Notes under the pieces: model-generated
Seen by the model: the letters and a program-made list of their open reading frames with translations, nothing else
Told to the model about the DNA's origin: nothing
Databases searched by the model: none
Origin: a virus
Taxonomy: Duplodnaviria; Heunggongvirae; Uroviricota; Caudoviricetes
Reading direction: 5' to 3' (one strand)
Virus record (IMG/VR): IMGVR_UViG_2874962485_000005
Length of the DNA stretch: 50,883 nt
Program-made: the position numbers and the translations under genes
Shown here: positions 19,883 through 23,424 of the stretch, piece by piece
How positions within the stretch are numbered: position 1 is the stretch's first letter
Layout of the letters: each line of letters opens with the position of its first letter

Positions 19883-19901
19883 AATGATAATTATTTTCAT
19901 T
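19883..19901 (+). promoter_or_regulatory. Putative Fur box in sitA promoter
   Basis: AATGATAATTATTTTCATT resembles GATAATGATAATCATTATC; about 75 bp upstream of sitA. Confidence 0.5.
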
Positions 19902-19920
19902 TTGTATAGGTTATGCTATA

Positions 19921-19942
19921 AAACATAGCCGTTGCTATGTTT
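19921..19942 (+). promoter_or_regulatory. Putative MntR box in sitA promoter
   Basis: Palindrome AAACATAGC-CGTT-GCTATGTTT about 33 bp upstream of sitA. Confidence 0.6.
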
Positions 19943-19974
19943 GTTCTAATTTTGCTCACTATAGGTACTAAATT

Positions 19975-20889
19975 ATGCACTCAATAAAAAAAGTAACCAT
20001 GCTCTTGGGGTGCCTCGCCCTCACCTGCTCGATCGCATTTCAGGCAAGTGCAACTGAAAAATTCAAGGTCATTACAACATTTACCATCATCGCGGATATG
20101 GCCAAAAACGTGGCTGGAGATGCTGCAGAAGTCTCATCCATAACCAAGCCTGGTGCAGAAATTCATGAGTATCAGCCTACCCCTGGCGATATTAAACGTG
20201 CGCAGGGGGCACAACTGATTCTCGCCAATGGTATGAATCTGGAATTGTGGTTCCAACGCTTTTACCAGCATCTCAATGGGGTTCCAGAAGTAATTGTCTC
20301 TTCGGGTGTGACGCCAGTAGGGATCACCGAAGGACCCTATGAGGGCAAACCTAATCCCCATGCATGGATGTCGCCAGATAATGCTCTGATTTACGTCGAT
20401 AATATTCGTGATGCGTTGATAAAATACGATCCGGCAAATGCACAAACCTACCAACGTAATGCCGATACTTATAAAGCCAAGATTACCCAAACCCTTGCCC
20501 CCCTGCGTAAGCAGATTACGGAACTCCCTGAGAATCAGCGATGGATGGTCACCAGTGAAGGGGCTTTTTCTTATCTCGCACGCGATTTGGGGCTAAAAGA
20601 GCTTTATCTGTGGCCGATTAATGCCGATCAACAAGGAACACCGCAGCAGGTACGTAAGGTTGTTGATATAGTTAAGAAAAATCATATCCCGGCAGTCTTT
20701 AGCGAGAGTACGATTTCCGATAAACCAGCGCGTCAGGTTGCGCGTGAAACCGGCGCACACTACGGCGGTGTGCTCTATGTCGATTCCCTGAGCACAGAAA
20801 ACGGCCCGGTACCTACGTATATCGACCTTCTTAAGGTTACTACCAGTACGCTGGTACAGGGAATTAAAGCCGGGAAAAGGGAGAAATAA
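19975..20889 (+). CDS. sitA: SitA periplasmic Mn/Fe-binding protein (cluster 9 ABC substrate-binding protein)
   Basis: 304-aa ORF with signal peptide [26 protein letters not shown]; first gene of a four-gene ABC operon. Confidence 0.88.
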
Positions 20890-21716
20890 TGATGCAATCT
20901 GCAGGCATTGTCGTTAATGATGTTACTGTCACCTGGCGTAACGGGCACACAGCACTGCGCGATGCATCCTTCACAGTACCAAGTGGATCTATTGCCGCTC
21001 TGGTTGGGGTAAACGGTTCCGGAAAATCGACGTTGTTTAAAGCGATTATGGGATTTGTGCGTCTGACCAGCGGAAAGATATCTGTTCTGGGTATTCCCAC
21101 GCGACAGGCGCTACAGAAAAACCTGGTTGCCTACGTCCCTCAGTCAGAAGAGGTTGACTGGTCATTTCCTGTACTGGTGGAAGATGTGGTGATGATGGGC
21201 CGCTATGGGCATATGGGTATGTTGCGTATAGCCAAAAAGAGGGATCGTCAGATTGTCACCGATGCGCTGGAACGTGTCGATATGGTGGATTTTCGCCATC
21301 GTCAAATCGGCGAGCTTTCCGGTGGACAAAAGAAACGCGTCTTTCTGGCGAGAGCAATTGCACAGCAGGGTGATGTGATCCTGCTGGATGAACCTTTTAC
21401 CGGCGTTGATGTGAAAACCGAAGCGAAAATCATCAGCCTGTTGAGGGAGTTACGCGCGGAAGGCAAAACGATGCTTGTCTCAACGCACAATCTCGGCTCA
21501 GTCACGACATTTTGCGATTATACGGTCATGGTCAAAGGCACCGTCCTGGCAAGCGGGCCGACAGACACCACTTTTACAGCCGAGAACCTGGAGCTGGCTT
21601 TTAGCGGCGTACTGCGCCATGTCACACTTAACGGCTCGGAAGAAAGCATTATTACTGACGATGAACGCCCTTTTGTGGCACATCGACCGTCAGCGGTGCA
21701 GAGGGAAGCAAGATGA
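20889..21716 (+). CDS. sitB: SitB ABC transporter ATP-binding protein
   Basis: Walker [10 protein letters not shown], signature LSGGQKKR, Walker B ILLDEP. Confidence 0.9.
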
Positions 21717-22570
21717 ACGTGCTACTGGAACCCTTCAGCTATGAATATATGCTCAATGCGATGTGGGTCTCGGCAATGGTCGGCGGTCTCTGCGCTTTCC
21801 TGTCATGCTATCTGATGCTAAAAGGCTGGTCGCTGATTGGCGATGCGCTGTCGCACTCTATTGTCCCGGGTGTTGCGGGGGCATATATGCTGGGGCTTCC
21901 GTTTTCTCTGGGAGCCTTCTTTTCCGGCGGACTGGCAGCGGGCAGCATGCTGTTTCTTAACCAACGCACCCGCTTAAAAGAAGATGCCATCATCGGCCTG
22001 ATCTTCTCGTCCTTTTTTGGCCTGGGGCTGTTTATGGTGTCATTGAACCCGACATCCGTGAACATTCAGACCATCGTCCTGGGCAATATTCTGGCAATCG
22101 ATCCGGCGGATATCCTGCAACTCACTATCATTGGCATTCTCTCGATCATCGTGCTTTTTTTCAAATGGAAAGATCTTATGGTGACCTTTTTCGACGAGAA
22201 TCACGCCCGTGCTATTGGATTACATCCGGGCAGATTAAAAATCCTCTTCTTCACCCTGCTGTCGGTTTCGACCGTTGCGGCGCTGCAAACGGTTGGTGCC
22301 TTTCTGGTGATCTGTCTGGTGGTGACTCCCGGTGCAACAGCATGGTTGTTAACCGATCGTTTTCCCCGCCTGCTCATAATTGCTGTAACTATTGGCAGTG
22401 TAACCAGTTTCCTCGGCGCGTGGGTCAGTTACTTTCTGGACGGCGCGACAGGTGGAATCATCGTGGTGGCGCAGACACTGCTGTTTCTTTTAGCATTTGT
22501 ATTTGCGCCCACCCATGGACTTTTGGCAAATCGTCGGCGTGCGCATAAAGCGCTGGAGGATCGCTCATGA
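21713..22570 (+). CDS. sitC: SitC ABC transporter permease
   Basis: 285-aa hydrophobic ORF overlapping sitB stop. Confidence 0.88.
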
Positions 22571-23424
22571 TGGCATTATTACTGGAGCCACTGCAGTTCA
22601 CCTTTATGAGTCACGCACTGCTGATTTCACTGGTAGTTTCCATACCCTGTGCGCTGCTGTCGGTCTTTCTGGTCCTGAAAGGTTGGGCACTGATGGGTGA
22701 CGCGATGAGTCATGCGGTTTTTCCTGGCATCGTGCTTACCTGGATTCTGGGGTTACCTCTGGCTACAGGGGCATTCGTCGCCGGAGTATTCTGCGCGGTG
22801 GCGACGGGATACCTGAAAGACAACAGCCGAATCAAGCAAGATACAGTTATGGGGATTGTTTTTTCTGGCATGTTTGCCGCAGGTCTGATCTTGTATATTG
22901 CAATTAAACCAGACGTACATCTTGACCATATTCTTTTCGGCGACATGCTCGGGATAACCATCGGCGACATAATCCAGACGGTGATTATTGCCGGGCTGGT
23001 TACACTTGTTATTAGCGTAAAATGGCGGGATTTTTTGCTGTTCAGCTTTGATTATCAACAGGCGCAGGTAAGCGGTTTGCATACGAGATGGCTGCATTAT
23101 GGGCTGCTGTGCATGGTTTCCCTGACCATTGTGGCGACGCTGAAAGCAGTAGGTATCATTCTCTCTATTTCTCTGCTCATTGCGCCTGGCGCCATTGCAG
23201 TACTCCTGACACAACGCTTTCATATTGCGCTCCTACTGGCGACTGGCATATCGGTAATAGTGTCAATGACTGGTGTCTGGCTGTCCTTTTTTATCGACAG
23301 CGCACCAGCTCCGACGATTGTCGTCTTATTCGCGGTCGTGTTCATCATGACGTTTACCGTTACCAGCATCAACGCACGCACAAAGGGAAACGCCCATACA
23401 CAGGATCTGTTATCACCCAATTAG
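22567..23424 (+). CDS. sitD: SitD ABC transporter permease
   Basis: 285-aa hydrophobic paralogue of SitC, overlapping its stop. Confidence 0.88.
   Translation: MMALLLEPLQFTFMSHALLISLVVSIPCALLSVFLVLKGWALMGDAMSHAVFPGIVLTWILGLPLATGAFVAGVFCAVATGYLKDNSRIKQDTVMGIVFSGMFAAGLILYIAIKPDVHLDHILFGDMLGITIGDIIQTVIIAGLVTLVISVKWRDFLLFSFDYQQAQVSGLHTRWLHYGLLCMVSLTIVATLKAVGIILSISLLIAPGAIAVLLTQRFHIALLLATGISVIVSMTGVWLSFFIDSAPAPTIVVLFAVVFIMTFTVTSINARTKGNAHTQDLLSPN

Follow-up and report, generated by a model that had tools for sequence, protein, structure and literature searches.

SitABCD is an ATP-binding cassette (ABC) transporter for which transport of Mn2+ and Fe2+ has been published in Salmonella, avian pathogenic Escherichia coli (APEC) and Shigella flexneri (PMC3852070). 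Repression of sitABCD by both MntR, in response to Mn, and Fur, in response to Fe, is described for Salmonella and S. flexneri in two reviews (PMC3852070 and PMC8264917, citing Ikeda 2005 and Runyen-Janecky 2006). Expression of sitA was up 53.8-fold in a fur mutant of Salmonella (PMC3212961), and sit is listed as low-iron-induced in all four Shigella species (PMC4746246). The operon is also known from phages: 70% of infant-gut lambda phages carried it, in every case with a Fur box (PMC6969025), and it has been reported as a moron of phage Perceval (PMC9928086). In Shigella, the 'PAI sit' has been described as unstable, rich in insertion sequences (ISs) and phage-related (PMC7545054 section 28). 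Here we analysed a 50,883-nucleotide stretch of DNA held as a virus record of the Caudoviricetes (IMG/VR record IMGVR_UViG_2874962485_000005), which as a whole is called the window. An earlier reading made from the letters alone (the sequence-only reading) had placed a sitABCD operon with dual Fur and MntR operators in it, on a phage-derived island. We are highly confident that the region 19975-23424 is the sitABCD operon, encoding an Mn2+/Fe2+ ABC importer dependent on a periplasmic binding protein, and this confidence applies jointly to its control by Fur and MntR and to its carriage as phage cargo.

Four open reading frames (ORFs) fill 19975-23424 in the order binding protein, ATPase, permease, permease, with stops and starts that overlap or abut. 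Their identification as sitABCD was borne out by comparison of the proteins. SitB scored 593.7 bits on the NCBIfam equivalog NF011630 (manganese/iron ABC transporter ATP-binding protein; cut-off 393), and SitA, SitC and SitD scored under the cut-offs of related family models. All four products were 99.6-100% identical to the RefSeq-named proteins of E. coli RMDEC332 (SitA 304/304, SitB 275/275, SitC 285/285 and SitD 284/285 residues), the E. coli SitA identical to that of the window being WP_000555620.1. SitA could be aligned without gaps with YfeA of Yersinia pestis (PDB 5uxs; E = 4e-125). In this alignment H64, H129, E195 and D270 of SitA fall on H76, H141, E207 and D282 of YfeA, the His/His/Glu/Asp metal-ligand positions. 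We take these four YfeA residues to be its metal ligands. By analogy with the published transporters, the SitABCD encoded here would import Mn2+ and Fe2+. Of 5426 complete E. coli genomes, 2383 contain the promoter together with the 5' segment of sitA; it occurs at 1681 places in chromosomes and 1046 in plasmids.

An MntR-like palindrome and a Fur-box-like motif had been noticed near the start of sitA, and both are indeed found there, at 19921-19942 and 19883-19901, starting 54 and 92 bp upstream of the sitA ATG (19975), respectively. The Fur-type sequence AATGATAATTATTTTCATT contains TGATAATTATTTTCA (19885-19899), which matches the 7-1-7 consensus at 13 of 14 positions. When the 19-bp Fur consensus GATAATGATAATCATTATC was searched for with up to three mismatches, a single occurrence was seen in the window, at 19880-19898 (16/19 match; 0.00 expected from shuffles). 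We also built a Fur matrix from 14 published Salmonella Fur sites (Table S2, PMC3212961), from which the sitA site was excluded. The best three scores of the 50.9-kb window (23.7, 18.7 and 16.6 bits) all fell at 19880-19903, and the next score elsewhere was 11.8. Leave-one-out scores of the training sites ranged from 7.9 to 25.0 bits, and the best score of the window Fur box lies inside this range. The Fur site predicted at Salmonella sitA in the same study, CAAATAAGAATTATTTTC, is homologous to TTAATGATAATTATTTTC of the window. Across a 13-taxon alignment the ATTTTCATTT portion of the Fur box was, like the ATAGC and GCTAT cores, invariant or nearly so, and the flanks had diverged.

The MntR-type site is a perfect 9-4-9 palindrome, a pattern that occurs once in the window when up to three mismatches are allowed (shuffles expect 0.04). 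All of its 18 half-site bases are the same as those of the MntR box of E. coli K-12 mntH, AAACATAGCCTTTGCTATGTTT. On an MntR matrix built here from four E. coli K-12 sites (mntH, mntS and two at mntP) the palindrome scored 27.0 bits and the runner-up in the window 8.6; with the mntH site excluded from the matrix, the palindrome still scored 23.7 bits against 9.6 for the runner-up. The matrix scan that the sequence-only reading had proposed for Fur and MntR sites thus left neither motif below threshold (23.7 and 27.0 bits, respectively), the matrices used being built here and not curated ones.

A palindrome in this position could also be an RNA hairpin, acting as an intrinsic terminator or attenuator of read-through from the integrase gene intR and the phage attachment site attP, rather than a protein operator. 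The terminator scan did list 19921-19942, and the RNA fold of this segment had an energy of -9.8 kcal/mol (z = -2.4). However, the stem would contain just 3 G-C pairs and the T-run that follows it (GTTCTAATTT) is poor. Across the 13 taxa it is the half-site sequence that is kept, with invariant ATAGC and GCTAT cores, while the 4-nt centre varies and no compensatory changes are seen. Moreover, the same half-sites are present at mntH, mntS and mntP of K-12 in different contexts, and the palindrome is kept in non-phage sit loci that have no integrase upstream. The terminator reading was rejected because of the poor T-run and because sequence rather than pairing is conserved, and we regard it as extremely improbable.

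We then looked at the same sites in other genomes. A scan for SitA, with one genome per species, gave at least 80 loci, with none from Shigella or E. coli among those listed, and the 350 bp upstream of sitA were scored in each. Comparison with other enterobacterial sit loci, which had been suggested as a check, showed a Fur box (at about -90 to -100) and an MntR box (between about -41 and -82, and for most taxa at -54 or further out) in the same order and spacing in 11 other genera among the matches listed: Salmonella, Citrobacter, Klebsiella, Raoultella, Enterobacter, Buttiauxella, Shimwellia, Atlantibacter, Phytobacter, Izhakiella and Erwinia (E. amylovora). An MntR site was found in 19/19 Enterobacterales sit loci scored. 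The Fur and MntR matches at sitA are not chance. Taken together, the matrix scores, the conservation across genera and the published dual repression uphold the earlier claim of dual Fur/MntR operators. Among the matches listed, MntR boxes only were present at the Pantoea sit loci and a Fur box only at those of Photobacterium, and neither box was found in the 350 bp upstream of the Rhizobiales loci.

That the operator pair is not universal would fit a situation in which a single regulator is important in vivo, such as Fur for Yersinia yfeABCD or in Photobacterium, with the other site being redundant; the study of sit-bearing phages likewise mentions a Fur box only (PMC6969025). Yet both sites are near-consensus in the window and are jointly kept in the 11 other genera, and the reviews cite genetic evidence for both regulators in Salmonella as well as S. 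flexneri (PMC3852070, PMC8264917). We therefore consider control by one regulator to be very unlikely, and continue to read the locus as being under both Fur and MntR.

That the strong MntR box has another ATAGC-N4-GCTAT unit immediately upstream of it was first seen in the 13-taxon alignment. In the window this upstream box is degenerate and scores 4.9 bits (8 of 50,862 window positions reach 5 bits); its distance from the strong box is exactly 19 bp, with the two 18-bp cores 1 bp apart. The single MntR site of the sequence-only reading therefore stands as far as the strong palindrome is concerned, and has to be amended by this degenerate partner. The sit loci tested covered ~13 genera and included two phages and a ColV-type plasmid; in 21/21 of them the best MntR match and the second-best one within 180 bp were exactly 19 bp apart. 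The upstream member of the pair scores higher than the other and is a good palindrome in Enterobacter, Buttiauxella and Phytobacter (24.8-27.1 bits); in the lineage of E. coli, Shigella and Salmonella it would appear to have decayed to little more than a -10 element. A partner MntR box is present at +19 in the mntS promoter of K-12 (10.0 bits; L084 2055-2095), with the strong box proximal and the weak box distal as at sit, and no partner at the 19-bp spacing was found at K-12 mntH.

Paired 18-bp MntR sites that are 1 bp apart lead to cooperative binding, as described for the MntR arrays of Bacillus subtilis by cryo-electron microscopy, and the same spacing was noted for E. coli mntS by the authors of that study (PMC11275975). 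It has been proposed that mntS derives from the signal-peptide region of sitA and inherited MntR control (bioRxiv 10.1101/2023.06.02.543501), and the strong/weak pair at mntS would fit such a descent with the sit promoter being kept. We tentatively suggest, with rather more doubt than conviction, that a conserved array of two MntR sites, instead of a single operator, may be present at the sit promoter. No prior description of two MntR boxes at sitA was found in the accessible literature, the primary sit papers lying outside the search.

For the best sigma-70 promoter, a -35 and an extended -10 element were predicted by eye (Table 1), with a distance of 17 bp between them. The predicted extended -10 overlaps the first 2 bp of the strong MntR box and lies within the right half of the upstream box. 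In the GCTAT at this element the G, T, A and T are invariant, and the C is conserved at 90% or more, in the 13-taxon alignment. Both predicted hexamers lie in conserved alignment blocks and would make up the sit promoter, and transcription is predicted to start near 19930, inside the MntR palindrome. No riboswitch or other RNA element was detected in the sitA leader, Rfam at gathering thresholds giving no match between 16935 and 29141.

We propose that a single promoter would drive sitABCD and be gated by two metal-sensing repressors. Fe2+-Fur bound to 19880-19903 would occlude the predicted -35, and Mn2+-MntR on 19921-19942 would occlude the edge of the -10 together with the predicted start site. 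The weak box 19 bp upstream, which lies over the -10, would probably take up a second MntR dimer by cooperative binding. Since each repressor should by itself be able to block RNA polymerase, full expression of the operon would require a shortage of iron and manganese at the same time, as is found inside host cells. That Fur and MntR repress the operon, and that its products transport metals, is taken from the literature; the promoter hexamers, the mode of occlusion and the role of the upstream MntR box are what we infer.

Some observations weigh against this scheme. The sit promoter was unlisted by the promoter scan, as the predicted -10 (TATAAA) fails a rule that needs a T at position 6 of the hexamer. 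The upstream box, at 4.9 bits in the lineage of the window, may be no more than a -10 element. Finally, no clear terminator 3' of sitD was listed by the terminator scan, which left out even the weak hairpin at 23588-23616 that is positioned between the convergent sitD and DUF4376 genes.

The state of the surrounding DNA raises the further question of whether the motifs are inherited relics at an operon that is silent or no longer metal-regulated, for instance because read-through from an IS promoter overrides the operators. The prophage around sit is heavily decayed, an IS1 lies ~1 kb upstream, and at least 13 IS copies are present in the window. In contrast, all four sit ORFs are intact, with products essentially the same as those of E. 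coli, and the promoter region (19860-20400) is 100% identical to that of E. coli FDAARGOS_944. In addition, reviews report both the regulation of sit by iron and manganese and its role in virulence in S. flexneri (PMC3852070; PMC4746246). Loss of metal control is therefore highly improbable in our view, and regulation by the two repressors remains the reading that we prefer.

The integrase gene upstream of the operators is a Rac-type intR, and the xisR-intR region is 99.7% identical to that of E. coli RMDEC332 (L087 1730-2075). The sequence-only reading had described a phage-type integrase split by IS1. An IS1 does lie inside the gene (18136-18903), and two further IS1 copies, at 2465-3232 and 41483-42250, are 100% identical to it, but the gene is not cleanly split. 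Between its two fragments intR lacks nucleotides 173-594 (422 bp), and the flanks of the IS1, AGTTCCGGT and TGACCCGTT, show no 9-bp target duplication. A simple insertion of IS1 into intR was ruled out on these two grounds, which point instead to an IS1-linked deletion.

Between intR and the Fur box is an attP-type junction, with a 26-bp core, AAGAAAGAACAATACAACCTGAACAA, at 19619-19644. When 19544-19760 was aligned with E. coli, the window tracked the intR-ttcA junction (attL) up to the core, and the uspF-sitA junction (attR) thereafter, the attL and attR matches overlapping at 19602-19644. E. coli RMDEC332 harbours the same prophage within ttcA, with intR and sit at opposite ends and ~45 kb apart. 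In the window intR and sit are adjacent, as they would be in an excised phage genome. Possible origins of such an attP arrangement in a chromosome are a tandem lysogen or an IS rearrangement.

The sit genes lie in a phage accessory slot, between attP/int and the tail-fibre genes. The segment 19748-26310 is 98.8% identical to E. coli RMDEC332, and the window is colinear with the prophage of that strain over 13780-26310, through gam, an ATPase gene, xisR', intR, attP, sitABCD and the tail-fibre genes, with the match being broken by IS2, an IS3-family element and IS1. In temperate phages, namely 1H12, ev207, Perceval and the Lambda_ev series, sitABCD is 98% identical and occupies the same place, in the same orientation, between int and the tail-fibre genes. 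The presence of this arrangement in sequenced temperate phages bears out the earlier suggestion that sit, followed by tail-fibre genes, is cargo on a phage-derived island.

In our reading, the sit operon is cargo (a 'moron') of a temperate phage with a Rac-type integrase and a ttcA attachment site. This phage is now a dead remnant in a Shigella chromosome, in which the order xisR'-intR-attP-sitABCD-tail fibres is that of the phage genome. An intact inducible prophage was not what we found, given the broken intR, the truncated xisR and the cut that IS600 makes in the structural genes. The window can be assigned to a Shigella chromosome because it contains an IpaH-family type III effector gene (3719-5434; NF046045, 562.6 bits, cut-off 550) and, just upstream of ipaH, the Shigella small RNA CssrB (3408-3590, minus strand); the presence of ~13 IS copies is also cited.

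Two direct IS600-like copies bracket the 12.7-kb sit-bearing remnant (Table 1). If these copies recombined, the island would be deleted, which would accord with the instability reported for 'PAI sit'. Upstream of the remnant, a truncated recE (exonuclease VIII) at 11037-12461 encodes 474 amino acids that match positions 1-474 of an 877-position profile and is cut by IS600; it is another piece of a Rac-type left arm. The DUF4376/tail-fibre 3' region was also seen to have a 712-bp duplicate (98%), 5644-6355 corresponding to 23655-24366. This copy adjoins ipaH and represents a second tail-fibre remnant, from a related prophage.

Table 1. Features of the sit locus and the prophage remnant around it (positions in the window; predicted and tentative features are marked as such)
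Feature	Position	Strand	Description
Left IS600-like copy	12466..13729	+	Bounds the prophage remnant
xisR remnant	17790..17962	+	First 43 nt removed by an IS3-family element
intR 5' fragment	17964..18135	+	57 codons
IS1 in intR	18136..18903	-	768 bp
intR 3' fragment	18904..19543	+	Catalytic domain
attP-type junction	19595..19648	+	Phage-borne 17-codon copy of the ttcA 5' end (MQENQQITKKEQYNLNK*)
Fur box	19880..19903		Overlapping Fur-type 18-mers on both strands
Predicted -35, TTTTCA	19894..19899	+	Inside the Fur box; read by eye
Upstream degenerate MntR-type box, TTGTATAGGTTATGCTATAAAA	19902..19923		18-bp core 19904-19921
Predicted extended -10, TGCTATAAA	19914..19922	+	Read by eye
Strong MntR box	19921..19942		AAACATAGC-CGTT-GCTATGTTT, perfect 9-4-9 palindrome; 18-bp core 19923-19940
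sitA	19975..20889	+	304 aa, periplasmic Mn/Fe-binding protein; predicted signal peptide ending ASA|TEKF, read from the translation
sitB	20889..21716	+	275 aa, ABC ATPase
sitC	21713..22570	+	285 aa, permease
sitD	22567..23424	+	285 aa, permease
Candidate two-way terminator hairpin (tentative)	23588..23616		GCGGCACGT-N11-ACGTGCCGC; G+C-rich, 9-bp arms, 11-nt loop, weak T-run
Tail-fibre block	23625..26310	-	DUF4376 protein 23625-24248, tail-fibre N-terminal-domain protein 24199-25467, further fragments; cut by IS600 at 26411
Right IS600-like copy	26411..27360	+	Repeats the left copy in direct orientation; truncated by IS1 at 27361

Other mobile and phage-related elements were seen elsewhere in the window. 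A group II intron occupies 29141-30754 on the minus strand, with an ORF of 507 amino acids for a reverse transcriptase/maturase (TIGR04416, 340.9 bits) followed by the Rfam Intron_gpII catalytic domain at 29141-29227. At 35629-37658, also on the minus strand, four tRNA genes (Met-CAT, Arg-TCT, Thr-TGT and Gly-TCC) adjoin the ORF of a 534-residue tyrosine recombinase, a cluster that looks like part of another mobile element or prophage. Two pairs of isrK and C4-antisense RNAs, which are phage immunity-type RNAs, were present at 8012-8200 and 39743-39944, and a sok antitoxin RNA at 42891-43065. These RNAs lie among lambdoid remnants with Rha, Q-like DUF1133 and DnaC-like genes.

In the wider setting, the sitABCD operon, the control of it by both Fur and MntR, the part it plays in the virulence of Shigella and E. 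coli, its carriage by temperate phages and the instability of the Shigella sit island are already published. The present analysis confirms the sequence-only reading of the locus quantitatively and adds refinements to it: the damage to the integrase is an IS1-linked deletion, int, attP and sit stand in phage-genome order, and a second MntR box, at the cooperative 19-bp spacing, is conserved among enterobacterial sit promoters. Of these details, the tandem MntR boxes with a 19-bp period are the sole one that is possibly unreported.

The closest described system is sitABCD of S. flexneri and E. coli ('PAI sit'), which has the same genes, the same promoter and the same kind of IS-rich, phage-related and unstable setting; the window is one instance of it, and nothing substantive differs. 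Salmonella enterica sitABCD shares the layout of Fur box, MntR box and sitA, with homologous sites, and its published dual repression is the model for the locus in the window. Salmonella SitA is ~76% identical to SitA of the window, and its genomic context is the edge of the pathogenicity island SPI-1, not a prophage. The Fur box is nearer to the consensus in the window: the Salmonella site scores 13.6 bits, and the window box 18.7 in the register homologous to it and 23.7 with its best overlapping 18-mer.

Among phages, Jouyvirus 1H12, ev207, Perceval and Lambda_ev share the order and orientation of xis-int, sitABCD and tail fibres with the window, with 98% nucleotide identity over operon and promoter and the same strong MntR box. 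Those coliphages are complete and inducible, and have a different integrase (a 1143-bp gene) and ~2.2 kb between int and sitA, whereas in the window a Rac-type intR lies ~430 bp from sitA and the phage is dead. YfeABCD of Y. pestis is a homologous cluster A-I Mn/Fe ABC importer with conserved ligand positions; Yersinia is without MntR, and Fur serves both metals there (PMC3852070).

At the level of the operators, the nearest likeness is to the paired sites of B. subtilis mneP and E. coli mntS, which consist of 18-bp sites with a 1-bp gap and a 19-bp period, a spacing that the sit boxes share. The mneP array activates transcription, whereas an array at sit would repress it. A further difference is the degeneracy of the upstream sit box in the lineage of E. 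coli and Shigella.

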